NCBI GenBank assembly: GCA_043228905.1
Contig: JBHGNT010000006.1
Span: 16,120,001-16,184,000, forward strand
Length of the DNA: 64,000 nt
DNA from: Azolla caroliniana
Lineage: Eukaryota > Plantae > Polypodiophyta
Direction of reading: 5' to 3'
Shown: one piece after another, positions 8,087-63,934 of the stretch
Layout of the letters: each line of letters starts with the position of its first letter
Position numbering within the stretch: position 1 is the first letter of the stretch
The notes under the pieces: model-generated
Database searches by the model: none
What the model was told of the DNA's origin: nothing
Seen by the model: only the letters and a program-made list of their open reading frames with translations
Position numbers and translations under genes: made by a program

Positions 8087-8118
<32 letters not shown>

Positions 8119-25608: not shown

Positions 25609-25639
<31 letters not shown>

Positions 25640-28600: not shown

Positions 28601-28732
28601 TAATTTTTGAATTTAGATTCTTGTTCTGCTCTTTTTGTCTCTCCCAAGTATTCTCTGTATTCTGTGTATTACTCTCTCTCTCTCTCTCTCTCTCTCTACT
28701 GCTATGCAGCCAAGCTGTTTTACGCTTCCACA
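22592..28732 (+). mobile_element. Ty1/copia element K (same family as C) nested in the LINE, degenerate
   Basis: LTRs 22592-23054 and 28301-28732. TSD CATCT at 22587-22591 and 28733-28737. PBS TGGTATCAGAGC 23055-23066; PPT TTGAGGGGGAC before 28301. gag-pol broken by stops. Confidence 0.95.
25614..25919 (-). mobile_element. About 300-bp 3' fragment of the same LINE family inserted in copia K pol
   Basis: Reverse complement resembles 29370-29835, with a (GAAA)n tail at the left end. It interrupts the K pol motif TRKEKGKKK and is flanked by a short AAAGA duplication. Confidence 0.8.
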
Positions 28733-30144
28733 CATCTAAAATGTTTTACTATAAGGAACACTTCTTGCACTTCTCTCAGTTAGGTTTTATTACACGACCA
28801 AGATATCTAGATACATTCTTATCAAATGCACTAAGGGTTGCCATTGGACAACTTAGGATATCATCTCACCAACTTGAGATTGAGAATGGTCGTGCTAATA
28901 GAGTCCCTAGGGAGGAAAGACTACGTAGGTTGTGCCACATATAGATAGAGGATGAATATCACTTCACATGCAAGTGCCCAACTTATGCCAAGATACAAGT
29001 GGACTACCAAGATATATTAGGACCCTCTCCCACCCTCTCCAAACTATTAGATACCCTGGATGTAAAGAGACTAGGTAGGTATATCTTAAAGCTAAAACAA
29101 CATAGGGAGAATAAATTACAAAGTGTTAACCATAACCCTTTTGCTATTCATCAACTTGTAACTAGTGTATTTTTTCAGGAACAAGGGGAGACGGTGAATG
29201 TGGATACACTTACGCCACTCGGCCTCTCTCTTGAGGAAGCCGAAATGCAAAGAACAACCAAACGCCCTCGGATGTTGGGCTTCAAAACCAGTCGACACGG
29301 AGTAGAAAGGATTAAGAAGATAAGGGAACGTGAGCTACGTCGACTAGAAGCTATGGTTGGGGTACCTTTTACATTGGGGCCACGGGCCACGGGCCACCTC
29401 CACATCGAAACCCTTTGACCTCCCACTTCTCTTCGAGAGACTTGGATGGAAATGAAATTAGGCTTAGTATAACATCATTTTCATTGTAGAACATGTTTGT
29501 TATTTTATTTTTATTTTTTACTTTCGATGAATGGGTAAATATCCCATTTTTTGTTGTAAACCATTTGTCTCATGGGTCAATTTTGGCCTCAGAAGATGTT
29601 AATATATCTTTCTTTCTTTTTCCTCATGTAAATGAAATTAGGCTTAGTATAACATCATTTTCATTGTAGAACGTGTTTGTTATTTTATTTTACAAAAACT
29701 ATTTAGCTTAAAACTCTATTTTTATTTTTATTTTTTACTTTCAATGAATGGGTAAATATCCCATTTTTTGTTGTAAACCATTTGTCTCATGGGTCAATTT
29801 TGGCCTCAGAAGACGTTAATATATCTTTCTTTCTTTCTCATGCTTTATGTACAACGATGATACAACAACTCACCTCACGTCATCACTAAAGTGATTGCCC
29901 TAAGTCATATTTACACTTATATGACTTTTGGGCTATTTACAAATATAGCCCCAATGGGCTTATCCTAACATATTTACAAATATGTCCTTGGATCCGGCTC
30001 ACACCGGATCCATCCGGATTCACTAGTTCCGGTTTTTGGATCTTATCTAGAACCCTTCCGAATCTGGCTTCTTCATCCGGCTCATCCAATCCGGCTCCTT
30101 CGGTTCTCATCCGGATCCCATCCGGAGGGACTGAATTCCCAACA

Positions 30145-38018: not shown

Positions 38019-38531
38019 TGTGAAAGTTAGCGTTGTCGTGAAAATCTGTCACTATGTGCGGATCGTGAGACGGAACCGCCGGGGTTTTGGACTAGAAGGA
38101 TTTAGTGCAACACGTACAACACAAGCAAGTTTTAAGCATAAGACAAGTGGGAGAGACAAATCATTCATTTATTGCAAAAGAAGATCGATTCTTTATAATT
38201 TCATAATCGTGTTACAATGGGTTGGGTATGGAAATGAGAGATTAATTTTTCAAAGAAAGGAGCCAACAACCATGCAAGGAGTGGTCCGATATGAATATGA
38301 GAGATAATTTTTGATAAGAAAGATCAAGTCCCCAAAGCTAGGAGTTTGATATCAATATGTGAGATAATTTGTTTCTCGAAAACCCAGCGAGAAGAAGAAG
38401 GAAGAAGGGGGGAAAAAAAACTAGGAGAGAAAAAATGGGACATATATCGAGCTCGTCGTTGATCCTCCTCCCCAATGTTACTTTGCATGCCCACTTTTAG
38501 TTGGATGGCCTCTATTTTTAGTTGCAAGCTT

Positions 38532-39147
38532 CCATTTTTAGATGCATGCCTTTTACTTTTAGTTGCATGGCCTTGGCTTTTGGTTGCATGCGATTGTCCG
38601 TATAATTCGGCCAAATGACACAATCATCCATAAAGTTTAGCCCGTTCGCAATCCGTACGTGCATCGCAACCAAACCGTAGACGCGTCCGCGCGCAAAAGT
38701 CCCGACCGCGTAGTAGTGTACGCATCCACGCGCGCGCGTCCATTTTTAGATGCATGCCTTTTACTTTTAGTTGCATGGCCTTGGCTTTTGGTTGCATGCG
38801 ATTGTCCGTATAATTCGGCCAAATGACACAATCATCCATAAAGTTTAGCCCGTTCGCAATCCGTACGTGCATCGCAACCAAACCGTAGACGCGTCCGCGC
38901 GCAAAAGTCCCGACCGCGTAGTAGTGTACGCATCCACGCGCGCGCGTCCATTTTTAGATGCATGCCTTTTACTTTTAGTTGCATGGCCTTGGCTTTTGGT
39001 TGCATGCGATTGTCCGTATAATTCGGCCAAATGACACAATCATCCATAAAGTTTAGCCCGTTCGCAATCCGTACGTGCATCGCAACCAAACCGTAGACGC
39101 GTCCACGCGCAAAAGTCCCGACCGCGTAGTAGTGTACGCATCCACGC
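38532..39147. repeat. 208-bp tandem repeat, about 3 near-identical copies
   Basis: Identical ORFs at 38637 and 38845 (offset 208); the unit CCATTTTTAGATGCATGCC... recurs near 38532, 38740 and 38948. Confidence 0.9.
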
Positions 39148-39189
39148 ATGTGCGCGTCCCGACCGCGCCGTAGTGTACGCATCCACGTG

Positions 39190-39640
39190 CACGCACGTCC
39201 AACCCGCACCGTGTACGCATCTGCGCGCAAAAGTCTCAACCGCGCCGTAGTGTACACATCCACGCATGCGCGCGTGCGCACACACGTGTCCGCGCGCTCG
39301 TCCATACATATGCGTCCATCCGAAACGTCCACGCGTACGCCCGAAACTTGCACACGCGTGTACATCCGAAGATGTCCATGCGCGCGTATGTCCGAAAACA
39401 TCCACACGACCATGCACACGCGCGTACAACCCGCACCGTGTACGCATCTGCGCGCAAAAGTCTCGACCCCGCCGTAGTGTACACATCCACGCATGCGCGC
39501 GTGCACACACACACGTCCGTGCGCTCGTCCGCACATATGCGTCCATCCGAAACGTCCACGCGTACGCCCGAAACTTGCACACGCGTGTACATCCGAAGAT
39601 GTCCATGCGCGCGTACGTCCGAAAACATCGTGCACACCAC
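39190..39640. repeat. 227-bp tandem duplication rich in alternating purine-pyrimidine
   Basis: AACCCGCACCGTGTACGCATCTGCGCGCAAAAG occurs at 39201 and 39428. Confidence 0.85.
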
Positions 39641-42600: not shown

Positions 42601-42903
42601 TTGTTTTAATAATACACTACTTTTTTTCTCTTGATCTTTTCCTTCAATATTGTTTGTAATATATTTGTTCCCTCAATTTCTTTCACATTTACATACATGG
42701 ACTTGCATGTGTGCGTAAGCTAATGTGAGTAATCCTCTTTCATATTTATTTTTTGATAGATCCGAAGATCTATAGTGGAAACTTGATCCTTGATTGCCTC
42801 GTAATCTTCCATATATCCCAGATATTTTAATTTGCTTATTCTTTTTAGAAAACATGGATTGTGTATGTATATTTCCCCTTCTTTTAAATGGAATCCATAG
42901 ATT

Positions 42904-45150
42904 ATGCTAGTCCAATGTACTCTACATTATTGTTACAGTATGTCCCACAACAAAAATACGAAAGGCAAAGGAAAGCAAATACGTCTCTTTACAATGCCTA
43001 GTTTTAGGAAAAACTTGTCATCTTCCAATGAAGATGTGCCTTTAGAAGAGCCTATAAAGGACCATCAACCCTCTCACGAGTTATTTCATGAGATGAATAG
43101 AATTAGTAAGGCCAAACTAAAATTTCAAGAAGATTGGCCAACTAAATTTAAGTGGCTTCAAGAGGATTTGGAAATTGGTCTTTTATGGTGTAGTTATTGT
43201 AGGAGTGATCCTCATTGTAAGTCTTCATTTGGCAAAACGGGTGCTAGAAACTTTAAGACTTCTGCATTAGAAGAACATGCAAAAAGTGTGGCCCATCGAG
43301 ATGCCCTTTTATTCCAAGAAAGAGACAAGAATGGTCTTGAAAAATGTGCATCAAAGAAAAAAGCTAGTGTGGATGTAGCAATTGAAAAATTGTTAAAATG
43401 TGCATATTTTATAGCTAAAGAGGGTTTGGCATTTAGAAAACTGGAAAGCCTCTTACGATTGTTAAGAGAATGTGGTGTGGAAGGCCTTCCACGAATGTAT
43501 AACGATAATAAGGCTTGTGCAAGCTTTATCTTGCACATTAGCAAGGCTCTTGAAGCCGAGATATATGATAGGGTGAGGACAAGTCCTTGGTTTGGGCTTA
43601 TGGTAGATGAAGCTACCGATGTAAACGTAACCAAGAACTTGATCCTTTACGCTACATTTGTGGAAGGAAGGCAAGTAAAAACCTCTTATTTGGGGGTACT
43701 TGAAGTAGAGGATGGTACAACAAACACAATAACAGAAAGCATTTTAGCATTGTTAAAAAAGTGGAACCTAGATGTTAGAAAAATGATGGGATTTGGAAGT
43801 GATGGAGCATCTGTTATGGTAGGTATGTCTACAGGTGTTGCTACAAGATTGAAGTCATATAATCCATTTATGACTTCCTTACATTGTTGTGCACATCGAA
43901 CAAACTTGTGTGTACAAGAGGCTTCAAAGAACATTGAAGTCAAAGAAACATGCAAGCAGTTAGATGCCCTTGTGAATTGGGTGGCTGCACATTTCTCGAG
44001 GAGCTCAATGCGCCAAGGTGAATTAACTAAGATGCAAGATGCATTAGAATACACACATTTGCATATTCTTGGGATTGTGAAGACACGATGGCTTAGTCGG
44101 CATGGTGCTATCATGAGGGTATGCGATGTGTATGAACCCTTGATGAAGACTTTGCAATCGCAAAGTGATGCATACAATGTATTCTTAAGTTTAAGAAACT
44201 TCAAAGTAGTGTATATGCTTCACTTCCTTGCAGATGTACTTAAGATCATGTCTACGTTAAGTATGGAATTCCAAAAGGAATATGTGGATGTGACATGCAT
44301 TGGAGGTTTGGCTATGATAGCCATTGGGGAGATAGAAGAACAATTTCTACATCATGTTATGATGGATCTCAATGGTTTTGAGAAGGATAGCTATAATTAT
44401 CCAATTATTCCAGAATATGGTAGAGAAAAAGGAATGCTTTCAGTTTTACGAGATACTATAAAAGGTAATATGTATAAAAGCATCTTCATGGATAGATGTA
44501 TTGATGGTGAGGACTTAATTGAAGCCATACGATTCCAAACTTTGTTTTCTAAGGCATTAATAGAGACAATAAAAAAAAGGCTGTTGAAAATGTTATCACC
44601 AATGAACATGTCTACCGGATCTACAAGCATTTTAGCACGAAAAACTATGGGTCTTAATGAGTTAAAAACACTTGGAAATTTTTATGGCATTCAAAAAATG
44701 ATAGATGGGAAAGAGTTTTCTCCCATAATTGATAATGATAAACTATATGATGAATATGCAATTTTCAAAAGGCAAGCCACTACGGAATGGCTTGGAAGAG
44801 ATTTCTTAGATGTTTGGGGTATGATAAATTGTAATGATGTGTGGAAAGAAAAGCTACCCGAACTTCTAAGGCTTTCATTGATAGGATTAATTCAATGTTC
44901 TTCTACGACAACATGTGAGAGAAGCTTTAGTCGCCTAAATCTAATAAAAAATAAGTTTAGAAATAGGTTAAAAAGCAATGCGGTTGATGCATTGATACGA
45001 ATCTCTATTGAAGGACTTGAACTAGAAGAACATGACTTTAGTGACAGCATTTTGTTCTGGCGAGAAAGCAAGGCATATCGTCATATTTTTACAGGAACTT
45101 CTCATGAGCATGATGATGACATCGAGGACTTCATAGAAGATATAGATTGA
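42904..45150 (+). CDS. hAT-superfamily transposase (ZNF862-like)
   Basis: 748-aa ORF: N-terminal zinc finger (WCSYC...EEHAKSVAH), GLMVDEATD, FGSDGASVM, HCCAH, KTRWLS and the hAT dimerisation region with CERSFSRLNLIKNKFRNRL. True start may be a downstream ATG. Confidence 0.9.
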   Translation: MLVQCTLHYCYSMSHNKNTKGKGKQIRLFTMPSFRKNLSSSNEDVPLEEPIKDHQPSHELFHEMNRISKAKLKFQEDWPTKFKWLQEDLEIGLLWCSYCRSDPHCKSSFGKTGARNFKTSALEEHAKSVAHRDALLFQERDKNGLEKCASKKKASVDVAIEKLLKCAYFIAKEGLAFRKLESLLRLLRECGVEGLPRMYNDNKACASFILHISKALEAEIYDRVRTSPWFGLMVDEATDVNVTKNLILYATFVEGRQVKTSYLGVLEVEDGTTNTITESILALLKKWNLDVRKMMGFGSDGASVMVGMSTGVATRLKSYNPFMTSLHCCAHRTNLCVQEASKNIEVKETCKQLDALVNWVAAHFSRSSMRQGELTKMQDALEYTHLHILGIVKTRWLSRHGAIMRVCDVYEPLMKTLQSQSDAYNVFLSLRNFKVVYMLHFLADVLKIMSTLSMEFQKEYVDVTCIGGLAMIAIGEIEEQFLHHVMMDLNGFEKDSYNYPIIPEYGREKGMLSVLRDTIKGNMYKSIFMDRCIDGEDLIEAIRFQTLFSKALIETIKKRLLKMLSPMNMSTGSTSILARKTMGLNELKTLGNFYGIQKMIDGKEFSPIIDNDKLYDEYAIFKRQATTEWLGRDFLDVWGMINCNDVWKEKLPELLRLSLIGLIQCSSTTTCERSFSRLNLIKNKFRNRLKSNAVDALIRISIEGLELEEHDFSDSILFWRESKAYRHIFTGTSHEHDDDIEDFIEDID

Positions 45151-45514: not shown

Positions 45515-45840
45515 GGTGCAAATAGACACTAGCACATACATCTATCCATCTAGTAGTAGAGTACATCCATTACATACATATATAAATACTTAGTTACTCT
45601 CCTCTACTCTACTCTACTACTAGAGTCTACATACATACATACATGCATACATTACATTACATTTAGTGTTCCTGATTCGTGAGGAGGCTTTGCCCAACTC
45701 TCACTCACTCACTCGTCCGCCTCCGTCTCTCCCAACAACACTACACACACACACACACACACACCTTCTGAATCGCCGAAGGAGAGACGAGTCACGACGA
45801 AGACGAAAAAGCCGCCCGCAGCGTTCATTTAGGGTTTTCT

Positions 45841-48045
45841 ATGCGACAGATTTCCGTCTTCTGCTTACGCAGAATTCCCAGCTTCCATGGAACCTTACCA
45901 TCATCATCATCATCATCATCATCGTGTTCGTCTTCTTTTTCCGGCTTCCTCATTCCTATATCCGTTTCTCTCGTCACTGGCAACTGTTCGCCCTCAGTAT
46001 ATCTTCACCAATTCTCGCAGTTTTGCCGATCTCATTCTGCATCTTCACCAATCACATCTAATAAGCCACTGTCGAGGCGTCCCATGTCTCCCTTCCTTAA
46101 AAGAACTGAAGGTGTGAAGATGATACTCGACCTGTTCTCTTCCTTCTCAGTATGGAACGATGAAGAAATACCTCGTTCCTTAACCAAACTCTCTGTTCCT
46201 TTCCATTCCTACACGGTCTCAGAAGTAATAAGAAAATCTGAAAGTCTTGACATAGCTCTGTGTTTCTTTAATTGGTTAATCACCTCAAAGAGCGAGTTTA
46301 AACCAGATAGTTATGTCTATAACTCTCTGATATATCGTCTTGGAAAATCTGGAAGATTAGAAGAGATGCAAAGCGTTTCAAATCTCTCTGTAATAAAAGG
46401 TAAAGCTTCTGTTGTTACGTTTACGTCCGTTATCTCTGGTTTCAAGAGGGCTATGGAAATTCGAAAAGCACAGGAAGCCTGGAATCACATTAAAGAATTA
46501 GGATTCAAACCTTGTCATAAAACATATACTGTTATGATTGATTTATATGCAAGTATGAAGATGTATGAAGAGGCAGGAGAATATTATCTTCAGATCTTGA
46601 AGGACAATCTTCGGCCGAGTATAAAAACATGCACAGTATTAATGAACCATTTAGTTCAAGAAGGAAAGCTCAATGCAGCCATTGATATGTTTCAAGGATT
46701 ATTGAAGCTCAATTTGAGACCTAATCCTGTAACTTGTGTGTACATTATGCTTGGATATGCAAAACTCGGTGATATGTACAGTGTTCTTAAACTCGTAAGA
46801 GATTTTAAGGACTATGGACACAACCCTGGCGCATTAGGCAACTCGTTTATTACTGTATTGAAGTATCTGGTGTGTGAAGGGAGAAGCGAAGATGCAGAGA
46901 AAATCATGAAAGAAGGGTGGCCGGAATCATCTGATGAGGACAGGAAGAAGAAGATTCTAGAGTTTCAAATGAAAATTTACAATGCATCCTGCCATGTTGA
47001 CATCATGAAGGAGGGTATAGAAGAACCCCTGGATTCTTCTCTTAGTGATTTTGAGGAGGATGAAGAAGGATGTGATGAACATGTAATACCATATTCATCA
47101 ACTGATGCTTCAACGCTATTGAATGTTGTGGCATTTGTAAAATGCCTTTTCCCTTGGACAAATGCAACAGTCCGAACCCTCGAGAAATCAAATCTGAGGT
47201 TCGATTGTGATTTAGTCTCGAAAATCCTAAATCGTCTAAGCAGAGCCGATTCTGGATGGAAGTTTTACCGCTGGGTTGCGAAACAACCAGGTTTTGCTCA
47301 TGACAAATATACTTGCCATCAAATGATTAAGCTATTTCTAAGAGACAAAGGATTTCCTAAAGCAAAACGTCTTCTTGTCGAGGCGCACAAGGAGCATGTA
47401 ACTCTACCATTGCATACTTATGGAAGTGTTCTCAAGCACTGTGGTTTGCAAAAAGATTCTGAATTTGCACTTCAAGTGTTTGAGCTTCTCAAAGAGTCTG
47501 GATTGTCACCCAATGAATCTTGTTACAAGTACTTGATTCAAGCTCTCTTCAAGTGTAATCGATATTGGAGAGTGGCAACTATATGTTCTGAGATGAAGAA
47601 AGCTGGGTTTCCCTTGGATGAAACTATGTATTCTCTTCTGATCGCTGGATTTGCAGGGGCAAGTAAAATAAGGATTGTGAGGAAACTTCTCAAGCAAATG
47701 CGTGCATCTAATTTTGAGCCAGATGCATACGTGTACAAAGCCTTAATAAGAACTTATGATAGGAAAGGGAAGCTAGACAAAGCGAAGAGAATATATAATG
47801 CGATGAGGAGGGATGGAATTAAGCCATCACCACAGATAAATGAGCTAATGGTTGACATTTTTACTAGGTTAGGTGACCATAAGAAAGCATGCACAATTAA
47901 AGATGAGATGCAGAGTTTGGCATTGGTGAGTGGAATAGCAAAGCAAGCACGTATTGATCAATATCTGCATTTCCATTCAATCTTTATGAAAAACCTTGCT
48001 GAAAACATAAGATTGAAACCTATAACAGTTGGAGTATGCATGTAA
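45841..48045 (+). CDS. P-class pentatricopeptide repeat (PPR) protein, probably organelle-targeted
   Basis: 734-aa intronless ORF with a Ser/Arg-rich N-terminus and two tracts of about 35-aa repeats (PDSYVYNSLIYRLGKSG, VVTFTSVISG, KTYTVMIDLY, PNESCYKYLIQAL, PDAYVYKALIRTY) separated by an acidic linker. Confidence 0.92.
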   Translation: MRQISVFCLRRIPSFHGTLPSSSSSSSSCSSSFSGFLIPISVSLVTGNCSPSVYLHQFSQFCRSHSASSPITSNKPLSRRPMSPFLKRTEGVKMILDLFSSFSVWNDEEIPRSLTKLSVPFHSYTVSEVIRKSESLDIALCFFNWLITSKSEFKPDSYVYNSLIYRLGKSGRLEEMQSVSNLSVIKGKASVVTFTSVISGFKRAMEIRKAQEAWNHIKELGFKPCHKTYTVMIDLYASMKMYEEAGEYYLQILKDNLRPSIKTCTVLMNHLVQEGKLNAAIDMFQGLLKLNLRPNPVTCVYIMLGYAKLGDMYSVLKLVRDFKDYGHNPGALGNSFITVLKYLVCEGRSEDAEKIMKEGWPESSDEDRKKKILEFQMKIYNASCHVDIMKEGIEEPLDSSLSDFEEDEEGCDEHVIPYSSTDASTLLNVVAFVKCLFPWTNATVRTLEKSNLRFDCDLVSKILNRLSRADSGWKFYRWVAKQPGFAHDKYTCHQMIKLFLRDKGFPKAKRLLVEAHKEHVTLPLHTYGSVLKHCGLQKDSEFALQVFELLKESGLSPNESCYKYLIQALFKCNRYWRVATICSEMKKAGFPLDETMYSLLIAGFAGASKIRIVRKLLKQMRASNFEPDAYVYKALIRTYDRKGKLDKAKRIYNAMRRDGIKPSPQINELMVDIFTRLGDHKKACTIKDEMQSLALVSGIAKQARIDQYLHFHSIFMKNLAENIRLKPITVGVCM

Positions 48046-50032: not shown

Positions 50033-51827
50033 AATAAGTTAACCAATATCTTTGTCTATAAGCAAGTTTTCAAGTAAGACAATAAACTCTTCCATGCACA
50101 TTTCATCGCCATTTTCACCAAACTAATAATTTTTTGATACACCATGTACCAATATAAAATGTAAATAGTAATGCTTGGTTGCAAACCCATATGTAGATTT
50201 TTAGGTCACACAATTCATGGAGGTAAACTAGGTCGTGCTTTGATACCACCCCCCACCTCATGTTGAACAACTTATAATGCAACCCTATATTATGTAACAC
50301 TTGGTGGATTAGTACTATTCACTAGTAGAGTGAATAACTATGTGTTGAAACTATAATTAGTATAAATTTGATGTGAGAATGACATGCTAACTCATCAAAA
50401 TGTCCTAACTGTTGGGAAACAAGTCCCTCCAAATGAGACGCGTCAGACAGTCGGATCCAGACGAGGAACTGTTTCGGCCGGAAGACATTCGACAAGCATC
50501 CGGAATCCAGATCCGGAAAGCATCGGCCGTAGCCGATTATAGGCCATATTTGTAAATAACCCCTATAGTGTATAAGTATAAATACCCTTAGGGCTAACAT
50601 GTGTGTGTGTGTATCATTAGAGAGCCAAAGATAATTGTATAGAGTGAAAATCAAAGCAAGGAAAGAGAGTGTGTGCGTAATTGTTGGTTAGACGAAGACG
50701 AGCTCGAGGTTGTTGCCTGCGAGTGTCCTTGTACCCTCTCCTCATATAGTGGAATGGTTCGGAGCTTGTGGGTAGCCGTGGTTTTTCCCATTATAGGGTT
50801 TTCCACATTAACATCTTGTGTCTTTGTGTCAGCATATTTATTTCAAATCTCTATTTCTGCTTCCCTTACTTTTGTGCTCAAAGAATCGATTGTGGCTGAT
50901 CCCATATTTGCAAACTGGTATTAGAGTGAAGGTTCATAACCTTCAAGCAAAGGAATATGGATGACTCATTTGGTGGAATGTTCAAGCTGTCCGACTCCAA
51001 CTACTCTGTCTGGAAGTTGAAGATGAGGGATATGCTTGTATGTAAAGACTTATGGTTGCTGGTGCAATACGGCAAGACCAAGCTTGACAAGATCGATGCA
51101 TCGACCTGGGAAGTCATGCATCTGAAGGTAGCGGCATACATAAGGTGTTTTATAGAAATGAGTCTATACAACAACTTCAATGAGGAAACATATGTTGACG
51201 TCCTGTGGAAGAAGATCGGGTTCATGTTCGAGAACAAGAATGTCGTAAATAGAGTCACAATCTTCAGAAAGATAGTGAGACTGAGGCATCAAGATGGCTC
51301 AAAATCATTGGCTAATTAATGGCACCCATATTTGATATAGAACCTCTCACTCATTGGTTCTTTAATGCTCACCATTTTAAATATTAGACTTATCAATCAT
51401 TGGTTAATTCATGCCCACATCTTTAATACACAACATTTGAGAGTCATAAAAATTGTTGCTTTTAGTAATCAATCATTGGTACATTCATGAACCTCTATCA
51501 TTGTCTCCTTCATGACCTTTGAAGTCATTGCAGGTTGTTATCACTATAAAAGATTGATCAATATGTTAGTTTGACTTTGTAATCATTAATGCAATCATAA
51601 GTTACTCTAGTTAATGTCACTGTGGTTACCAACTAACTATCCTCAAACTTACCAACCTTGGTTAAGATGACTATGGTTAGTTTAACCAATGTGGTCAATC
51701 CCAATAAATAGGAAGACCTCGTCATATTTCACTCACAAGAGCACACAAGAGCGTACAGAGCACACAAAGCACACAGAGCACGAAGCACAAAAGCGCGATT
51801 TCCGCCTCCACTGCCACACGATCAACC

Positions 51828-54800
51828 ATGTCTTCAAAGAGAATCGAGCGCGAGGACTCCAGGTAGGCCTCTGACACTGTGGACATTTTTGTAAATATGT
51901 TTTGTCGCTCAAGAACTCGATACGCCGTATCGAGTTCCTGTATACAATACAAACTTTATACAAGAACTCGATACAGCGTATCGAGTTCATATTTTTATTT
52001 TTTCTTTTTAAACATGAACTCGATATGCCGTATCGAGTTCGTGTTTAAAACCTAAACATTAAACGGGAACTCGTTACGGCATATCGAGTTCCTGTGATTT
52101 CTTTGCTTTTTAAACAGGAACTCGATACGCCGTATCGAGTTCATGTTTAAAAAGAAAAAAAATTAATATGAACTCGATACGCCGAAATCACAGGAACTCG
52201 ATATGCCGTATCGAGTTCCCGTTTAAAGTCTAGGTTTTAAACAGGAACTCGATAAACCTAGACTTTAAACGGGAACTCGATACGGTATATCGAGTTCGTG
52301 TTTAAAACCTAGACTTTAAACTGGAACTCGATACGCCGTATCGAGTTCCTGTATAAAAGAAGGCAACAATTAATTATTTTGTGGAAAAGATATCAAATTG
52401 TCTGTCAAAATCAATCTTTTTTATGTTGACTTGCCTTACTTTTAAAAAAAACATGCCCTAATTAAAGGTGTTTTATGACCTACTATTTGCTTAAAAGAGT
52501 AGAAAATAACCCACAAATTACCTTTATGATAGCAAATTCTCCTCAATATAGGTCTGGAATCTATATAAGTCATACCTCCTCTTTAAAAGAATATATACCC
52601 CTGTTTACTTATTACGATATATACTTTCTAGTTTGAATAGCCCTGCCTAGAATGGATTTTTGAATATAGGACTACCATGTACTCTGAATGCATGATTGAT
52701 ATTTTCACTTCACCACTAATCGCCTGCTAGTGAGAACTGTTCTTCATCTTCTTATTTATATTTTAATATACAACCTTAATCTACGTGACCACCTAACTTA
52801 TGTTTTTGCATGTACTTTCTTAAATAGGTCGTTTGAGAACCTGTCGGACCGACCCGTGAAGAAAATAAAGCTTCGCATACAGGGTTCTCCAATCAAAGCC
52901 CAGACCAAGGTAGCTCCTGAGACCATGAAGAGAGGAAAAAAGCTTCTCTTCAACGAGGAGACAAAATCTCAGCCACACATTGACGTTAGCCAAAAGAAAC
53001 TTGTCGCCGCTACTGGAGGTGAAGACCTTCCTGACCGTGATCTAACGGACAAGGAATGGTGTATGCAATATGTCGACTCAAAGAAAAAAGTCGTATTGTA
53101 TACAACAAAGAAGAAGGGGGAGGGGCAGCTTGGAAAGGAAACACCATTTATGTATGGCTGTATTCTACGATTTGACTACGAAGATGCAGATTCGGCCAAC
53201 ATACTAGTAATGATAGAGTGCTCCAAGGGGGTACGTAAAGTGTTCCTTTCAGAAGATCTTTTAGTAAAGGAATCTTGTGGGCCAAAAGCGTTCAAAAAAG
53301 ATCTTGAAAGCTCACAAAACCTTATTGTTACCTTGAGGCCTTATATACAAGGCCATGTAACTCTAAGAGATGAAGTGCCCTCCCCATTGAAGGCCACCAA
53401 AAGGGTATCCAAAGTCCAGTCAAGACCACCAAAGAAGAAGACATCCAAAATGTCCGACACCGATTCAACAAGTGAAAACGAAGAGGACAATAAGGGGACG
53501 CTAGGAGCTGAGCTGGCATCGGGTGTTTTGTCATCTGAGCAGAATAAGATAAGGAGAGAGTTAATGCAGCGTAAACTGGTCAGGAAAGGGCAAGTGTTTA
53601 ATTTGCCTATAACACACATCCATCGGCCCCCTATTGATGAAAAAACAGGTCGACGACCACTTGAGATTAGAGAGCCACATCGCATGCACGTTCAAAATCT
53701 CAAGAAAAAAATGAAAATTAATCCTCATGCCACTGTGGTGCCTTTTATTGTTATGGTAGATCCTAAAGAATGTGAAACCATTGAAGATTTTGATATTAGA
53801 AAGCATGATCAATATAATTACTTTGTCATTGGTGGATCACATTCAGCGGAGGCACGCCGACAACTTGTGAGAGAACATCCAACAACTTTCTTCTTCAAGT
53901 ATGCCGAGTGCAAAATTTATGTTGGGCTCACAACCGAAGAGGCTAAGCTGTTGGCATGGGACCATAATAATGATAATGACTATAGGCAGAAAATGTCGTC
54001 CATTGAGCGTATACGGTTCTTCCACCACGAGTATTTGGACGTGAAACAAAAGTTTGGTGTGAAGTTACATCCAGGCCTACGACGTCAATGTCTGCATGAA
54101 GTCGGCATTGTTGTAGATGATAATGTTAAGTCCGATGGTCTTCGAAAATACGAGTCTTGGTTTCAATTGGCATTTAGAGATGGAGAAGTATGGGACCTAC
54201 AAGATCAAATCTTCTCAATGTGGGAGAATAAGGAGGTAAAGGGTCAACGACAAAAGAAATGTAAGGTTGACCCTCAACTAGACTTAAAGTCACAAGTCGC
54301 CAAGAAAATTGACTTGACAATTGAAGAAGCCGCAGACGACATGAAGCTGTATCTGTGGAGAGCGATGCAAGGTATTAAGGACGAGCAACTTCTTGTGTCT
54401 GTTTTGTCAAGGGTTGTGGCAAAAGATTTAAGCCTTGAAGAAATGGTCACTGAGTTCAATAAGTAAGTCTTTCAAATACTGAAAATTGTAGTCTATATGG
54501 TGTAATTCAAAGTTCTAATCTTGATTTCTAATTTTACATTCATAAGGTGTACATGAAGATCCAAGAAGTTATGATGAAACAACTTGGATGTATAACTTGG
54601 GAACAAGTGACCGAGGATTATCCTCTAACATCTTCATATAAGGCGTTATCAGAGTATTTTATTGCATTCAAGGATTTGGTTAGTATTGATGGTTTTTCAT
54701 TACCCTTTCATTATATGTAGAGCTTGTATAATAATACCTGATGTCCTATTGCTTCTATTAGAAACCGTGTCGAGGCAAGAAACAAGGAGAAGTTAAGGAT

Positions 54801-56060
54801 TTACACGATTTCCCTACATCCTTCCTTGCACATCTCGGGCGAGCTAGAAAAGAAAAGGATCGTCGCTTAGTCAAGGCGTATGAAATGGAGGAAGATGGCT
54901 CCTTTAAAAAATTTAGCCACAAAAAAGATATTGTAACGAGAGATCTTTACTACAATGTGGTTTGCGGTGATGTCCTCGACTTGATCCAAAAGGTGCCAAA
55001 GAAGGAATATACGCTAATGATTGCAGATATTCCTTACGGATTTCGAATGGCTGGGTCATCATACGACGATGAACCGTTTAGGTTTAAACAATTGGAGAAG
55101 ATGGTCAAGGATTTCGCTGAGCTAACGATTGCATCCTTGTGGCGAATAGTTGTCTTTCATAGTATGGACCAAGGATACTCGGTAGCTCAAGCTTTGAGAT
55201 CTCGTTGCCATGGCATCGAGAACCTTGCATGGTAAGGATTATTTATAGACCTGTGTCTTTCACTATATTGCATTTTTTAAGGTTGTTCAATCTATTCTTA
55301 ACTCGATGTATTATTTTTTATAGGATCAAGACCAATGTAAATAGAGGGCCAACTTTTCGGTTCGTTAATGCCATTGAATACATCACGGTTGGCTACTTCG
55401 ATGAAATTAAGAAACAGAGAATCAAGGAGCATTCTAATGAAGTGGGAGGTTCAAATCTATTGGTATATCCAGCAGTGACACGGAAATTGCGACATGTCAC
55501 CACGACAGAACAGGGACTTGTCAACCCATATCAAAAACCTCAACGACTTATGATGCGCTTGATTAAGATGTTTTCTATCGAAGGAGTCTGGATATTAGAT
55601 CTCTTTTTTGGCACAGGTATTCCTCGAACTAGGGTAACGATCTTGAGATAACCAATCCCGAATCTTTTTTGTTTGACAACTAAATCTTCTTGTTACTTAC
55701 ATCACAGGAAAGATGTCTGCATGTGCATTGAAGTTCTTTAGAAATACAGTTGCATTGGAGAAGGACGAGGACCAGGTTATATTTATTAATATGTGGATTA
55801 AGGCTTTGTGGGAGTGCCCAGACCAGGATGAGGAGGTCGGTGCAAAGAACCTCGCTAATACATAAAGGTTTCAACCTGCTTTGCGAGAGTCTATTCCTCC
55901 GTTAGCCGGCGAACTGTGGGAGCTAATAGAGCTTGATGATGAGCTTATAGAAGATATTTCGTTGGCTCGGCTAACAGGGGAAGCCAATGCACGTATAGCC
56001 GAAGAGAGTTCTACACAAGATGATGAAGAAAATGACGTTGATGAATTGATTGCTATGTAA
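51828..56060 (+). pseudogene. Spliced gene (6 exons, about 974 aa) for a ParB/Srx-like domain fused to a beta-class N6A/N4C DNA methyltransferase; this copy probably damaged
   Basis: Exons 51828-51862, 52828-54462, ~54540-54678, 54762-55231, 55324-55616 and 55708-56060 total 2925 nt, in frame. Four introns are clean GT-AG; the intron 2 acceptor reads AT at 54538-54539 and there is an in-frame TAA at 55863. Motifs: VVCGDVLDLI, MIADIPYG, W/IK, NPYQKPQRLMMRLIKMFS, ILDLFFGTG, ALEKD; ParB-like PFIVMV...YFVIGGSHSAEA...EEAKLLAWDHN. Confidence 0.8.
51913..52348. repeat. Array of 25-bp palindromes GAACTCGATACG-C-CGTATCGAGTTC with 26-27-bp AT-rich spacers
   Basis: Full copies at 51913, 51964, 52016, 52067, 52118, 52194, 52273 and 52324; half copies at 52170 and 52245; period about 51 bp. 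Confidence 0.93.
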
Positions 56061-59000
56061 TAGACTCTATGAAGAAAATGACATTGACGATTTGTTAGGA
56101 TTTCACATTATTAATACAAATTTTGGGTTTTACCTAGTGGATTCTATTCTTTATAATCTTCTATATGTTTCAATTTTATTTTTATATACTTGGTTAGTAG
56201 ATTTATGACATTGGTTTCATCGCGTGCATAGTTGACTACCAAATTTATGGAGAAACATGAATTAGTTTAAATTGAGGCTGATTTTGGTCCAAGCTAACCA
56301 TAACAGAACATGGCCCTACAATTGTTTCCATGACTATCCATGTTGTTATTATGGATCTTTGTTTTCTATTGTTAAAACTATTATGTTTCTATTCCATTGC
56401 TGCTTAGATTGTGTAGTGTGTTGATAATGGTTCCAGATGCGTTATCGTTCGGAGTTTGATCCTGTGTGAATCACCTAAGCAATAGAGTAAATCAATTTTA
56501 AATATAGGTATGAAAGCCTAATAGGTTTGTTATTTCCACGACATTATCCTAAAGTTCACTGCCTTACATTGTCCACAATTATATACATATGGTTTGATCC
56601 CATATGAACAAACTGAGGAATAGATTAGATCAACTTTAAATACAAGTATTGAATACTTTAATAAGTTAGTTATTCCAATCACTTATTCTAATGTGCACTA
56701 TCCTACATTTTCCACAATTACATACATGCACGTATGGGTCAAAGTATAAATTATAACTCATTTTATTAGTATGGATACAAGTACACCTGATATTTTTGTA
56801 AAACTTACCTAATTAATATAAGTCTTTAAGTTAGTGTTTCCCTTGTCGCACAGTAGTGACATATTGAGCCATTGTTGAACTTTATTATGCCTACATTAAC
56901 TTATCAACGTGTCTAAACTTGCATGATTTCTAATGATCTCCACTCGTAGACCTATCATGTATTTTTATATTTGCAAATTCTCATCAAGTTGAGGAACATG
57001 TGATACTAGTGCATCCAATTTTTGTAGAGAGGGTGTATCTGCTTCATTTTAAGAAGATTCTACAAGTGGAATGCGCAATCCTTCCACTTGTGAATGCGAA
57101 TGTGTTTCAAGTATGGCTGAGCACCTGAACGCTTTCCAAGGACTGATAAATCAGACCACCTCTTTAGAAGTACCTCTTGCCGACGAGATATTGTCATTGC
57201 TATTGTTGGGATCCCTTTCAGACAGTTGGGAGACGCTCGTGGTTACCCTTGGCAATGCGGAACCACAAGGGAAGAAACTATCCCTAGAGATGGTGAAGTC
57301 GAGCTTGCTGAATGAAGAAGCTTTCCAGAAAGATAGACAGTTTATCTCTTATCACAAGGCCCTAGTCAAGAAGGTGACTCCAATAGAGGAAGGGGTAGGC
57401 AAAGAAGTCCTCAAAATGGAGACAAGTCTAGAACGAGGTCAAAGTCGAAGGTAAGGTTCACATGCTTCTATTGTGGGAAGTCAGGACACTTCCAGACACT
57501 ACCGAAGGGCAAAGGGGGAGCTGATGGTGTTGAGATGAATAAGATTCCCGATAGAAAGAACGCCTCAGCAATCGTCGCAAGCAAGGAGGAGCTATTGTTC
57601 ATCAATGAACAAAGTGAGGCAAACCTTGCCGGCAAAGAATCAACATGGGTGGTCGATTCCGGTGTGTCGTTTCACTTGACTCCAAATAGAGAATGCTTCT
57701 CATCATATACTGTTGTGACTACGGCTACGTGAAGATGGGGAATGACAGTGCATGCCAGATTGTTAGCATCAGAGAGGTATGTTTGCTGACATAAACAGGT
57801 TGTAGAATGACACTGAAAGATGTGCGCCATGTTCTGGATATTGGATTGAATCGGATATCAGTCGGACAGCTCGATGACAAAGGTTACAATGGTAACTTCC
57901 AAAACGGCACATGGAAATTCTACAATGGGAACCTGATTGTGTCCCATTCTCGGAAGCAAAACACTTTATATGTGATACATGCACGGTTGAACTGGAATGA
58001 GGCGAATGTGGTAGGAGACACAACTGGTGAGTTGTGGCATAAGAGTCTATGCCACATGAGTCAAAAGGGCATGCAGATGCTAGCCAAAAGAGAACTTCTG
58101 CCGAAGGTTAAGAAAATGCATCTAGAGAAATGCCCTGACTGCTTGGCCAGAAAACAGAACAGGGATGCCTTTCGCCCTAGGCCTCCTGTGAGGAGGAGGA
58201 ACACTCTAGAACTCATGCATATGGATGTATGCCAAGTTGATGCAAAGTCACATGCCGATGCACAATATTTTGTGACCTTCATAGATGACTATAGACGAAA
58301 CTTGTGGGTTTTCACATTGAAGACAAAGGACCAAGTGTTGTCCGTCTTCATAGAATTCTAGGAAAGAGAAGAGAGATAATCCAGACAAAAGTTGAAGGCT
58401 ATATAAACGGATAATAGAGGGTAGTATAGACGGCCGTTCAAGGAATACCGCCAGTCATAACGAACCTGGTTGGAATACATAGTGCCGAAGACCCCCGAAT
58501 TAAATGGCATGGCGGAAAGAATGAACTGAACCTTAATGGATAGAGTCTGATGTATGTTGGCACATGCTAAGTTGCCAAAAGCCTATTGGGTGGAAGCGTT
58601 GAAGACGATAATCTATGTCATAAACAGGTCTCTCTCAGTTCCCTTAGATAGTGATATCCCACAGTGGGTGTGGACAGGCAAAGATATGCCATATTGGCAT
58701 CTGAAAGTGCTTGATTGCATATCATATCTACATATAACTAAGGACTTCAGGGGGAAACTTGATCGCAAGAGCTGACCGTGCATATTTCTCGGTTATGGTG
58801 AAGACGAATTTGGCTATCGGTTGTGGGACCTGATTTACAACAAGGTCATCAGGAGCCAGGACATAGTCTTTATGGAAGAAGAGACTATTGTTGAATGGGA
58901 AATGGAAATGAATGTGTCAAGCCCTTAGACGAGTAGAAGAGAGCAGCGCACCCAACCGGCCAAAAGCCGAATGCTAGCCAAAGAGCTAAGTGGGCCGGTC

Positions 59001-59417
59001 GGATTCAGATAAGAAGTCAGATTGGCTGAAAGAGAACTGGAAGCTGGATCCGAACATGAATTCTAATCTGACACGGATGAGGAGCTAGCAAAAGAGAATG
59101 AGATAGAGTCGATTAATGAGAACGAAGACAGGAGATATCCACTGAGCAACAGGAAGGCCCCCCGAAGATTTCCGGATTATGAATTTGTACTGTTAACCGA
59201 TGAAAGGGACCTGGAAAGCTTCAAGGAAGCAAGGAGAGATACCCATAGCCCAGAGTGGTTACATGCCATGCAAGATGAGGTGGACTCTTTGCATGAGAAC
59301 CACATGTACGAGTTGACCGAGTTGCCAAAAGGAAAATGGGCGATTCAGAATGTCAAGTGGGTATACAAGCTGAAACCGGGAGAAGGCGGAAATCCACCCA
59401 GTCCACATTGTGGTGAA

Positions 59418-60236
59418 CAAGGTTGTTAGGTACAGTACGGATACCATACGTATATAACGTATTAATACCCGTATAGTACCTCCCAATTTAAAAATACGTT
59501 AAATAAGTTTTCTTAATATGTTAAATACGTTAAATACGTATTTTACGTATAATACGTTAAATACTTCTAGAATTTGAAAATTATTTACCTTTCTAAAAAA
59601 TATCTATAATATTGTAAAAAACATCTATTTGAACACAATTTTGTGATGTACAATATAGTTCTACATCCTAAAATGCATATAAGACATTTGAACATTTCAC
59701 ATCCTAAAATACTTGTAGTAATATGGATGTCAACATTCCCTTATTCTATAAATCAGTGTAAGTGTGTATCACGATGTTCTACTTCAAATTGTAATTATTT
59801 ACAATTATGTCTTCATAGATTGAGGAATCGTCTACGATTATCACACTCATGATAGGTTTCTCTTTTCTACGCTTTCTTCTTCTTCTATCTTCTGCGATTA
59901 TCACACTCAGAGTCAGGACAAGTTTATGTCTTCTTTTCTCTCTTCTTCTTCTTCTTCATCTTCTTCTTCATCATCGTCTCTTCTATTCTTCTTCCTTCCT
60001 TCCATTGGCTTCTCTTTCACTAAAATATTTTTTTTCTTTTGCTTTTTGTTGGGGTTTTACTTACATTTTCTTTATAAATACGTATTATACCTGTTTTTTT
60101 ATAAATACATTAAATACCGTATTGGACAAATGTACATGATATTTGACTGAACAACATTGAGGTATAGTACGTACTATACAAATGATGAGGTATTATACGT
60201 ATTTAAACGTTAAATACGGGCACATAAACAACCATG
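59418..60236. mobile_element. Non-autonomous TIR element (819 bp) with a 5-bp TSD
   Basis: TIRs CAAGGTTGTT / AACAACCATG; TSD GTGAA at 59413-59417 and 60237-60241; subterminal AAATACGTT/TACGTA repeats; interrupts the copia IVVK-GFQQ motif. Confidence 0.85.
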
Positions 60237-60484
60237 GTGAAGGGTTTCCAACAAAAAAAGGGTGTAGATTTTGACGAAATATTTGCTCCGGTAGTGAAGA
60301 GGACAACCACCCAAACGATGTTGAGCATTGCAGCTAGCATGGACTTGGAAGTTGAACAACTGGATGACAAGACAACTTTCCTGCATGGAGGTTTAGAGGA
60401 AGAAATATACATGCACCAATCGGAAGGATTTGTGAAGAAAGGTAAAGAAGACCTCGTATGCTGATTGAAGAAGAGCTTGTACGT

Positions 60485-61148
60485 TGTCGTGATGTGGCAT
60501 GTCTAGTGCGAGAAAAAATCAAAAATTGAGGATCCACACACATTTCACGAATACTTGTAAAAATGAAAATAAATAAACCTAGGTCACAATGGCATTGAGT
60601 GCATGTAGAGGGTTGCAAGTAGGATTTGAACCTTGCACCTCTAAGATAAGAGGCAATTACCTTACCACTAAAGCTACTACTAAGTGCTTTAGATGTTCTA
60701 TATTTCTTTCTCATATTTAGTATTCCGTAGGAAACAAACGAACAAAACCGTGTACACAAAACCACGGTTTTAAGCCCATGGTTTCCTGCATGTCTCAAAG
60801 CAAAACTGTGTGCATAGAAACCATGGCTCCAAGCCCATGGTTTTGTGCATGGACAAACCTATAAAACCCCTAGTACGGCTTGTGTAAGGGGGGGGCTCAA
60901 TGTGATATGACCATCATCATCACCATCAATAATATAAGCTTCTATTTCTTCTTCTTCGCATCTATCTTGTAATTATTTATCTACTTCTGAAAGTGTACAA
61001 TCTTCAATCTTCTCAAGTGTAATAGGTCTTCCTCCAATCTTACATTCACATCGTCCTCTTCTCAATACCTTGACGGACATCCTCCTTGGTCCAAGACACC
61101 GGTGGTCCCGCTCAAGCGAAGCACGCTCGCACGCGCATCTTCGCGACA
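60485..61148. mobile_element. Probable solo LTR (664 bp) with a 4-bp TSD
   Basis: Termini TGTCGTGA...TCGCGACA; ACGT at 60481-60484 and 61149-61152; removing it restores the copia frame KKSLY..QAPRQWY. Confidence 0.8.
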
Positions 61149-61844
61149 ACGTATTTATGCAAGCTCCTCGGCAATGGTACCAGAAATTCAAATCCTTCAT
61201 GGTGGACCATGGGTTCCACAAGACGCAAATTGACCACTGTGTCTTTGTGAGAGAGATTAGACAAAGGAGACTTCCTTATTCTCGTATTGTACATTGACGA
61301 CATGCTGATCATCAAACAAGACCGGAAGAAAATCGGAAGCTTGAAGAAGGCCATGAGCAAGTCGTTTGAAATGAAGGATATTGTCCAACAAAGCAATTCT
61401 GGGAATGCACATTGTCTGGGATAGGACAAAGAAGTTGTTGTGGTTGTCACAAAAAAAAATGTGGCAAAGGTGCTCTAGAGGTTCAACATGTAGAATGCAA
61501 ACCCGATCAGTTTGACATTACCGACAAACAACAAATTGTCTGTAAGTCAAAGTCCAAAGTCAAAAGTGAAGAAGGCCGAGATGAACAAGATCACATATGC
61601 CTCAACAGTCGGAAGCATGATGTGTGCAATGGTGTGCACCAGGTCAGACATCTCTTATGTTGTTGGAGTGGTCAGTCGGTTCATTACCAACCTTGGCAAG
61701 GAACATTGGGTTGCGGTGATGTGGATTCTCTGATACTTGAGAGGCACCTCAAGTGTATGCTTACGATACAACTCAGGTAACCCCTTGTTGAAAGGGTTCA
61801 CGGACTCCAACATGTCGGCTGATGTTGATACCAGTTGGTCTATG

Positions 61845-62688
61845 TCAGGATACGTGATGACTTATGTAGGGGGAGCCGTCTCGTGGCAATCAAGGTTGTA
61901 GAAGGATGTGGTTCTATCAACCACATAAGTAGAGTATATGGTTGCCATAAAGGAAATCATATGGATGAGAGATTTCAATAGTGAGTTGGGAATGACGCAA
62001 GATCAATTCCAACCTCACTGTGACAACCAAAGTGTCATCCACCTTGCAAAGAATGCCGCGTACTAGTCGATAACTAAGAATATCCAACGGAGATATCAAC
62101 GGCTTAGAGAGAGGGTAGAAGAACGGGATTTCGACCTAGTGAAGATCCACACAGATGGCAATGGATTGGACATGTTGACCAAGGTGCTGCCGATGGACAA
62201 GCTAAAAGCATGCCAGAAATAAGCAGGTCTGATGGATCATCCCATACCGGAGTGAAGGGGGAGTAGTCTGGATATGTGATGACTTATGTAGGGGGAGTCG
62301 TCTCGTGGCAATCAAGGTTGCAGAAGGTTGTGGCTCTATCGACCACAGAAGTAGAGTATATGGTTGTCGTTGAAGCCGGCAAGGAAATCATATGGATGAG
62401 AGATTTCAACAGTGAGTTGGGAATGAAGCACGATCAATTCCAACTTCACTACGACAACCAAAGTACCATCTACCTTGCAAAGAATGCCGCCTACTAGTCG
62501 AGAACTAAGCATATCCAATGGAGATATCACTAGCTTCGAGAGAGGGTAGAAGAAAGGGATTTTGACCTAGTGACGATCCACATGGATGACAATGGATTGG
62601 ACATGCTGACCAATGTGCTACTAATGGACTAGCATGTGGGCAATGAGCAGGTATGATGGAACATCCATACCAGAGTGAAGGGGGAGTT
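61845..62688 (+). repeat. Diverged tandem duplication (about 420 bp) of the RNase H-PPT end of copia E
   Basis: GGATA(C/T)GTGATGACTTATGTAGGGGGAG...GAGTGAAGGGGGAGT occurs twice (about 61845-62264 and 62266-62688). Confidence 0.85.
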
Positions 62689-63934
62689 TTTTGGGAAACA
62701 AGTCCCTCCAGATGGGATGCTTTGCACAGCCGGATCCGGATGACGAACCGTTTCGGCCGAAAGACATTCAACACGAATCCCGAATCCCAATCCATAACCC
62801 CTATAGTGCATAAGTATAAATACACTTAGGGCTAACATGTGTGTGTATCATTAGAGAGCTAAAGATCGTTGTATAGAGTGGAATATCAGAGCGAGAAAAG
62901 AGATAGTGTCTGAGTAATTGTCGGTTAGATGAAGAAGAGCTCGAGGTTATTGCCTTCGAGTGTCCTTGTACACTCTCCTCATTTAGTGGAACGGTTCCGA
63001 GCATGTGGGCTCCCGTGGTTATTCCCATTACAGGGTTTTCTACATTAACAACTCGTGTCTTTGTGTCAATGTATTGATTTATATTCTCTATTTCTGCTTC
63101 CTTTACTTTTGTGCTCAGAGAATTGGTTGTGGTTGATCCCATATTTGACACTAACTCTAAAAAGTTAGAATGTGAACGGATACAAGTTAAAAGCTAAATG
63201 AATTTGCATCTTCCAAGTGTCCTTGGATCTCTTTTTTTCCTCTCCCTTACCTATTTCTACATGGTACAAACATGCCAAGAAATAATACCTCGGTATTATT
63301 TCACACTTACCATATCAATAAACTAAATGATAACAGCCATTACATATGGTGTATGACCACGGAAACCTACTTTAACAATATAATTTGTTAACAATCATTA
63401 ATGGTAGAGGGTGAAAGCATGGGAATGGAAACACTATTATAGCTAACATGTAGCAGACATCCTCAAGTCTAATTAGGTATTATTTTCGCTAATATTTAGT
63501 GGGCAAATCTTAAAGATAGATATAATTTATTATGGGACGAAAATATGGGAACGAACAGAGGGTTTTATGCACTCATGTTTTTGCCTTTAATGTCAATATA
63601 TTGCCATACTAATGCCAACGCACAACCAATTCCCTCTTCATCTACATATGAATCAATTAAAACGAAGAAGCTACGATGGCGAATCAAGGGGGCATGTAAG
63701 ACTAACATTGACATGGACATGGTCGTCGATCGTTGGGAGGTTACACCCTATTGAGAATCAAACTCAACTTCTCATGGAGAAAGTGTTCACACTAGTCAGT
63801 GGACATCATACTAGGCTAGTTTTGTAATTAGTAGAAAGGGCACTTGCCCTAGATCATTTGGTATTTAAACCAACCTTTTGTAACATAGTTACTATTGGAT
63901 GTAATCTATCTGTTTACGAATACAACTTCTTGTT

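Follow-up and report, generated by a model that had tools for sequence, protein, structure and literature searches.

The 64,000-nucleotide stretch of Azolla caroliniana DNA analysed here (the window; contig JBHGNT010000006.1, positions 16,120,001 to 16,184,000) contains a copia long terminal repeat (LTR) element whose gag region is split by a copy of a Sola-type DNA transposon. This transposon carries an accessory gene for a protein that joins a ParB-like fold to a DNA methyltransferase, hereafter the ParB-methyltransferase gene. Intron 1 of this accessory gene holds a conserved, helically phased row of palindromes, and the transposon is present in high copy number. The predicted GT and AG boundaries of intron 1 enclose the whole array, as stated in a preliminary description of the locus, and the array begins about 210 bp past the TATA box of the gene (Table 1).

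The array is composed of full 25-bp units starting at 51913, 51964, 52016, 52067, 52118, 52194, 52273 and 52324, together with half units at 52170 and 52245 that consist of a left arm only. Each full unit has one central base flanked by 12-bp arms and is a perfect palindrome in three of the eight cases (51913, 52118 and 52324); a unit-by-unit listing thus reproduces the eight full and two half copies first reported. The 51-52-bp period described at the same time fits five of the seven gaps between successive full units (51, 52, 51, 51, 76, 79 and 51 bp) but not the 76- and 79-bp gaps, each of which contains a half unit. Searching the window with a 17-bp core and up to two mismatches gave nine matches, eight of them in the array, against 0.82 expected, a count reached in none of 100 shuffles. 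Both TCGA tetranucleotides are preserved in every window unit, whereas the GATAC/GTATC pair, which had also been ascribed to each unit, is intact in only four of the eight. CG>TG/CA changes make up six of the seven substitutions, all six at the inner CG, and so predominate as described, although units 3, 4, 6 and 7 carry one common variant arm and the substitutions therefore represent about four independent events. The term CRISPR-like, used in the preliminary description, captures a visual likeness only. A CRISPR array was rejected because the spacers are neither unique nor unrelated, resembling one another above shuffled sequence (0.59 versus 0.48), and because their lengths are not uniform, falling into three classes across relatives; the window spacers are also partly palindromic. 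No CRISPR family appears among the 48 Rfam matches to the array at E up to 0.1, all of which score under the gathering threshold. The seven open reading frames (ORFs) scanned near the array encode transposon, PPR and gag proteins.

We compared the best 80 of 170 metagenome stretches encoding a homologue of the ParB-methyltransferase. Homologues of the protein show 71% identity in Ceratopteris, 46% in Ginkgo and 30-40% in more distant cases. The preliminary description had named absence of the array from other copies of the element as grounds for rejecting its proposal, and this ground falls away: of the 42 relatives whose flank exceeds 1 kb, 37 have at least one unit ahead of the ParB domain and 32 have at least two. 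The five array-less relatives have upstream DNA that is missing or replaced. Units are concentrated in the zone from -1750 to -700 (199 in 36,320 bases, compared with 48 in 293,329 bases elsewhere), and by-eye inspection of 16 relatives showed a short coding exon with a GT donor ahead of the array in 15. Array-bearing relatives span 70-95% protein identity and represent each of the three deep clades in the protein tree. They share the 23-bp core consensus AAnTCGATRC-nnn-GYATCGAnTT, in which the central triplet is family-specific, and their units occur in both orientations. Within eight arrays compared unit by unit, cores are 79-100% alike and spacer middles 54-71%. The protein-plus-site module proposed at the outset therefore stands in so far as gene and array occur together in three deep clades, while binding of the one by the other stays predicted.

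The spacing of units follows the DNA helix. After six redundant loci were dropped, 110 of the 112 gaps of up to 60 bp fell into classes of 30-33, 39-43 and 49-54 bp, which correspond to three, four and five helical turns, and none fell at 34-38 or 44-48 bp. A free scan of periods from 6 to 20 bp returned a best value of 10.45 bp; the best period is unchanged when the 49-54-bp class is removed, with 40 of 47 gaps no more than 2 bp from a multiple of 10.4, and none of 2000 jitters was equally strong. Fixed arms with a three-nucleotide centre, free spacers, units in either orientation and whole-turn spacing fit a dimeric protein on double-stranded DNA. The same features speak against the improbable view that the array acts through a host factor, through nucleosome positioning or as an intronic hairpin RNA giving rise to small RNAs. 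Units can fold as hairpins, most of the Rfam matches are to miRNA-precursor models, the observed/expected CpG ratio is 2.3 within the array against 0.3-0.7 in its surroundings, and background repeats share some of the helical lean (see below). However, the Rfam matches are all sub-threshold, selection for a hairpin would not fix the arm sequence, the three-nucleotide centre or the helical-turn spacing, and mixed unit orientation suits double-stranded DNA.

The array resides in an element that the preliminary description overlooked. Judged by its sequence, the window copy is a dead element derived by deletion from a Sola-type transposon, in which the right terminal inverted repeat (TIR) is retained, the left TIR was not found, and no transposase match was found within the window. 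Contigs of all three DNA runs represent the empty site, joining 51298 to 57107 across four ambiguous letters, TCAA. At the left junction (51299-51311), a deletion with 4-bp microhomology, running from the beginning of the left TIR to an A run inside the element, would explain the present structure, and loose contig ends indicate that other copies have different, A/T-rich DNA ahead of 51301. Full-length relatives measure 7.6-8.6 kb and have TIRs of about 33-35 bp that start with AACAC (33 bp and perfect in L041, 34 bp in L052, at least 26 bp in L011). Their 4-bp duplication is TGTT on both sides in L033 and mismatched in L035, L041 and L052, so that one of four loci agrees; mismatches are expected of collapsed contigs. 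Helitron, Replitron, Crypton and TTAA-specific elements were considered and dropped, given the TIRs and the variable 4-bp duplication. Eleven long relatives hold all or part of a single-exon ORF of about 900 amino acids, which is encoded on the other strand and diverges from the methyltransferase gene. The product of this ORF matched DUF7869 in all four cases tested (E 1e-51 to 1e-53) and has conserved acidic motifs. We take DUF7869 to be the Sola transposase; its structural model is poor (pLDDT, the per-residue confidence score, 43) and gave weak integrase-core matches only, with no significant fold match. The label Sola-type is a putative one and covers both Sola1 and Sola2. At full-length loci, the transposase and ParB-methyltransferase ORFs are the only ones above 110 amino acids between the ends, no search having been aimed at ParA. 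Summed contig depths in two runs were 52 and 19 on the neighbouring PPR gene, used as a depth control, and 25,000-29,000 and 7,000-11,000 on bins of the element outside the array, which points to hundreds of copies, although a depth sum is no copy number. Contig joints and loose ends show that the number of array units varies among copies. Tandem repeats of other kinds also occur in the window copy, namely a 46-bp repeat in its 5' part (51303-51490) and a 138-bp pair in its 3' part (56454-56727). Sola elements are included, without detail, in a repeat table for Ceratopteris (PMC6890710).

Table 1 Features of the transposon, its accessory gene and the palindrome array (window coordinates)
Feature	Position	Strand	Remarks
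Host copia LTR element	50412..63130	+	insertion divides gag; LTRs start at 50412 and 62691; position of outer end approximate
Left target duplication, TCAA (4 bp)	51299..51302	+	
Non-autonomous Sola-type DNA transposon derivative, 5,804 bp	51303..57106	.	lacks left terminal repeat and transposase gene, probably through deletion
TATA box, ParB-methyltransferase gene	51703..51710	+	mutated here, first base unlike essentially all contigs; TATA-like boxes in relatives
Exon 1 (MSSKRIEREDS...), predicted	51828..51862	+	
Intron 1 (GT-AG, predicted)	51863..52827	+	contains the array
CTGTACGGAC motif, decayed copy	51877..51884	+	in relatives, conserved just after the intron-1 donor
Palindrome array	51913..52348	.	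8 full 25-bp units and 2 half units; A/T-rich spacers
Exon 2	52828..54462	+	PH-like N-terminal domain, linker, ParB/Srx-fold domain, helical ParB DNA-binding-domain-like region
ParB/Srx-fold domain in exon 2	about 53567-53992	+	
Helical ParB DNA-binding-domain-like region in exon 2	about 53933-54462	+	
Exon 3	54540..54678	+	splice acceptor 54538-54539 broken here
Exon 4	54762..55231	+	methyltransferase motif IV DIPY at 55026-55037
Exon 5, PF01555 N6_N4_Mtase	55324..55616	+	motif I DLFFGTG here, DLFSGT in relatives
Exon 6	55708..56060	+	premature stop 55863-55865 here
Right terminal inverted repeat, about 35 bp	57072..57106	-	AACAC start on minus strand; matches left and right ends of relatives
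Right target duplication, TCAA (4 bp)	57107..57110	+	

Because full-length copies are transposons with TIRs, a 4-bp target-site duplication (TSD) and a separate transposase gene, and because its nearer end is 3.4-3.7 kb away, the array is unlikely to be a mobilisation origin, one of the options first put forward. It could instead act as a central transposition enhancer, bound by the DUF7869 transposase or by a bridging ParB protein and uniting the ends. In full-length elements the array indeed has a roughly central place, which at four loci is 3.4-3.7 kb from the left and 4.1-4.6 kb from the right end. A related palindrome, TGATAC-CA-GTATCA, which has the GATAC half-site in common with the array, occurs 103-113 bp inside five of six left ends (L006, L030, L033, L035 and L052), with a partial copy near some right ends, in the window at about 56998-57015. 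However, this subterminal palindrome has a different spacer from the array unit and 10 of 17 right ends do not carry it, full units do not occur in subterminal DNA, and comparable arrays accompany ParB genes in a different transposon superfamily; L052 has both ends without an array, but is itself a deletion derivative. An enhancer is on these grounds quite unlikely.

Like the element, the accessory gene of the window copy is dead by its reading frame and signals: the TATA box is mutated, the intron-2 acceptor is broken, motif I is altered and a premature stop interrupts exon 6. The array of this copy could therefore act only with protein supplied in trans. The intact protein comprises about 974 amino acids. 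About 20 nt past the intron-1 donor, relatives carry a CTGTACGGAC motif that is kept across distant families; it was seen in 11 loci, at about -870 to -1870 relative to the start of ParB, and is possibly a second protein site or a splicing element.

The window holds several further features outside the transposon. A 749-amino-acid open hAT-type transposase ORF lies at 42901-45150 (-), with zf-C17orf113, DUF4371 and hAT dimerisation domains, followed by the single-copy PPR gene ORF at 45772-48045 (+), and tandem arrays of 208 and 227 bp occupy 38531-39629. The pol region of the copia element, read by eye, carries two more insertions at about 59426-60235 and 60486-61149, one a short-TIR non-autonomous element and the other a TG...CA piece that resembles a solo LTR and has ACGT on either side.

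The ParB-like nature of the exon 2 product is visible only by structure comparison, as profile searches of Pfam, NCBIfam and PDB sequences gave no match for this exon. Its AlphaFold2 model has a mean pLDDT of 83 and was matched by Foldseek to Noc/ParB at E 1e-5 over about 290 columns. Structure comparison placed PadC, pNOB8 ParB and KorB at Z 8-9, with Z 8.1, a root-mean-square deviation (rmsd) of 4.6 and 211 aligned residues for pNOB8 ParB and Z 8.1, rmsd 10.5 and 134 aligned residues for KorB; the alignments to pNOB8 ParB, KorB and Spo0J extend into the helical region. Neighbours in the ESM Atlas are DUF3723 and unnamed clusters (0.95-0.96). The N-terminal domain (53030-53390) is PH-like, its best match being M18BP1 SANTA at Z 6.2, under the trust level. 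A homodimer of the ParB region was predicted through the ParB fold with a score of 0.54, compared with 0.02 for the best of three controls; the runs share at least 69% of contacts, with pLDDT of at least 74. The mark applied to this score was reached by 21 of 30 microbial pairs, none of 23 single chains and 17 of 29 eukaryotic pairs, but by only one of the seven eukaryotic pairs without an older solved relative, so that resemblance to ParB dimers may account for the score.

Motif IV, in its DIPY variant, precedes motif I (DLFSGTG), the order of beta-class enzymes, within a PF01555 methyltransferase. All 43 of the motif IV sequences found in relatives read DIPY, and 39 of 40 true motif I matches read DLFSGT. 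The closest solved relatives of the Ginkgo-type homologue P0018 are RsrI, MboIIA and CcrM; together with the D-x-P-Y motif, these N6-adenine enzymes suggest N6-methyladenine (6mA) as the putative product. The first assignment of the gene as ParB-like plus methyltransferase is thus upheld and refined, to a ParB fold whose helical region aligns to ParB and KorB DNA-binding domains (DBDs), joined to a predicted beta-class N6/N4 methyltransferase. A distant homologue, P0013 (1825 amino acids), contains two tandem ParB-methylase modules and may be a fused gene model. Viral contigs held no relatives of the ParB-methyltransferase (query P0025) or the transposase. A two-unit core pattern matched at least 3 viral and at least 121 prokaryotic stretches, and among the 124 loci listed none matched the ParB region or the transposase and one had a weak methylase match (L148), so that no prokaryotic source of the site was found among them. 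Three prokaryotic stretches (L151, L141 and L106) have 7-9 loose core matches with no ParB or transposase homologue nearby and are probably unrelated repeats.

The simplest binder of the array is probably the element's own ParB-like dimer; each dimer would read the two TCGATRC half-sites of one unit, and the 3-5-turn spacing would align the dimers along the same side of the helix, like SopB at sopC. We take the ParB gene rather than the transposase gene to encode this partner because arrays in the unrelated Bostrychia Plavaka superfamily adjoin a ParB-fusion gene (10.1101/2025.02.11.637652). As to function, the array may well be a binding platform from which the ParB-like methyltransferase would methylate or shield the divergent promoter region, a reading that we hold with about even confidence. 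The tethered beta-class enzyme (DIPY) would write a mark other than 5-methylcytosine (5mC) near the start sites of both genes, and this mark may help the element remain expressible in a plant that silences by 5mC, as VANC does with intronic motif arrays. We favour such local methylation or shielding, in that the array lies just downstream of the shared promoter region, over repression, a transposition enhancer, a host factor or RNA, and neutrality. Under repression, the ParB-like protein would bind the array chiefly as a KorB-like repressor or autoregulator of both divergent genes, with methylation incidental or directed elsewhere. In favour of repression, KorB is one of the best matches by structure (Z 8.1) and is named in its PDB title as a ParB-family repressor, and the array follows the TATA box at a distance of about 210 bp. 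Strict conservation of the methyltransferase motifs argues otherwise, since a fused enzyme tethered at a multi-site array most simply acts there, and we consider repression alone unlikely.

Several observations weigh against local methylation or shielding by the element's own protein. The DNA-binding region by itself matches weakly (KorB DBD, Z 4.8; SopB DBD, Z 3.7). GxxRxxA is the CTP-binding motif of ParB, and its position reads GGSHSAEAR in fern loci, with H-S/T replacing the arginines in distant relatives; CTP use and clamping by the ParB-like protein are therefore doubtful. Other tandem repeats at the same loci show a weak lean to 10-bp multiples (R 0.41, p 0.007; 13 of 29 within 2 bp), related loci are non-independent, and longer gaps may be sums over missed units. 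CpG-type transitions account for 53 of 91 core mismatches among 192 units, which makes it likely that genomic arrays are 5mC-methylated much of the time. The array motif switches once from ATGC to ATAC, in step with the tree (31 rows; loci with the ParB stretch broken before 250 amino acids left out, and the mixed label of L002 due to one doubtful unit), and because protein and transposase are co-inherited and this single switch tracks the tree, co-evolution is uninformative. The 80 loci derive from one metagenome assembly series of collapsed, consensus-like contigs and are themselves non-independent. The plant loci were chosen through the protein, so that gene-less arrays could not appear among them, and contigs cover the array 2-5 times as deeply as adjacent bins of the element (in run X1, 57,000-125,000 versus 25,000-29,000), an excess that fits longer arrays and mapping across families, and equally arrays that stand free of the element.

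The last two points, together with the variable unit number, also count in favour of the array being a neutral satellite or a mere product of inverted duplication, which might spread without the gene. Position and core are nevertheless the same in families whose proteins are 70-75% alike and whose spacers have turned over, and the sole extra array, in L013, flanks a second, inverted remnant of the ParB-methyltransferase gene, so that neutrality is very unlikely. Extending the preferred platform reading, a land-plant transposon may have rebuilt a full bacterial ParB-parS module, in which dimers would load and spread or bridge and the methylase would write 6mA or N4-methylcytosine (4mC), a mark serving the element alone against silencing in a lineage considered to have no 6mA system of its own; the module might in addition unite the ends for transposition. 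We put this forward tentatively, as rather doubtful.

The idea of a ParB fusion that binds and modifies its own transposon is already in print, as a proposal, for the algae Ectocarpus and Bostrychia, in two 2025 genome papers whose consulted sections give no site (PMC12477816; 10.1101/2025.02.11.637652). Added here are a land-plant family that joins a ParB-methylase to an array, a consensus site and a helical phase; neither the land-plant case nor the phased site was found in the literature searched, with most subscription journals and Repbase outside its coverage. Because the family supplies a defined site, a 3-5-turn geometric rule, intact relatives and hundreds of copies, it turns the hypothesis into a simple experiment. 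If the favoured reading is true, it would provide a source of localised 6mA/4mC in plants, a new route by which transposons escape silencing by 5mC, and a compact methylase tool with site specificity. If a rebuilt ParB-parS module is true, it would be the second, mechanistically distinct self-targeting epigenetic transposon system after VANC, and the first with a writer enzyme.

Among the known systems closest by description is Sola1-1_Ec32 of Ectocarpus, whose accessory protein is proposed by its authors to bind and modify its own element. Both are labelled Sola-type, putatively so for the window family, and have a 4-bp TSD, termini that start with AAC (AACCG in Sola1-1_Ec32, AACAC in the window family) and a ParB-like plus N4/N6 methyltransferase gene opposite the transposase, encoding 1104 and about 974 amino acids, respectively (PMC12477816). 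Sola1-1_Ec32, however, is a brown-algal element of 21.5 kb with a 282-bp TIR and 2 intact copies, whereas the window family is of a land plant, measures 7.6-8.6 kb, has TIRs of about 33-35 bp and is very high in copy number. A palindrome array is mentioned neither in the main text on Sola1-1_Ec32 ('palindrom', 0 matches) nor in its family row (PMC12477816). In Bostrychia, PAG3 of Plavaka resembles the window gene as a transposon accessory gene with a ParB-like N-terminus and adjoining tandem inverted-repeat arrays, which are proposed as its binding site; it belongs to the EnSpm/Plavaka superfamily and fuses ParB to a 2-oxoglutarate (2OG) oxygenase, the N6 methylase being separate (PAG2), and section 8 of that text gives neither consensus nor phasing for the arrays (10.1101/2025.02.11.637652).

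The array itself shares with parS/sopC-type sites clustered conserved cores with free spacers, whole-turn spacing and a linked ParB-fold protein that is predicted to be dimeric. In sopC, tandem inverted-repeat cores are bound by a SopB dimer, spacer bases are dispensable and a 43-bp, four-turn spacing sets the sites on one face, with a variable number of units as in the window family (PMC3177203). That system differs in serving bacterial partition with a ParA ATPase and in having direct tandem units (PMC3177203), whereas the window family has mixed orientation, three-, four- and five-turn spacing, a lost ParB arginine motif and no ParA gene seen, ParA not having been searched for specifically. 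VANC of VANDAL, likewise an accessory protein of a plant DNA transposon, binds short motifs massed in tandem in non-coding parts, including an intron of its own gene; these are non-palindromic 8-9-mers in the same orientation, and the outcome is 5mC loss (PMC5735166), as against a palindrome, a ParB fold and a writer enzyme in the window family. Bacterial-type N6/N4 methyltransferases, some of them on mobile elements and linked to active chromatin, are found in other eukaryotes, namely in DAM retrotransposons (10.64898/2026.05.21.726589), Marchantia DN4MT1 (10.1101/2021.02.12.428880) and the chlorophyte ParB-HTH Dam (PMC4738411). DAM-LTRs are retroelements with NPP motifs and are reported absent from streptophytes (10.64898/2026.05.21.726589), and DN4MT1 is a host gene with TSPPY (10.1101/2021.02.12.428880), whereas the window family combines DIPY in beta order with a full ParB fold on a DNA transposon.

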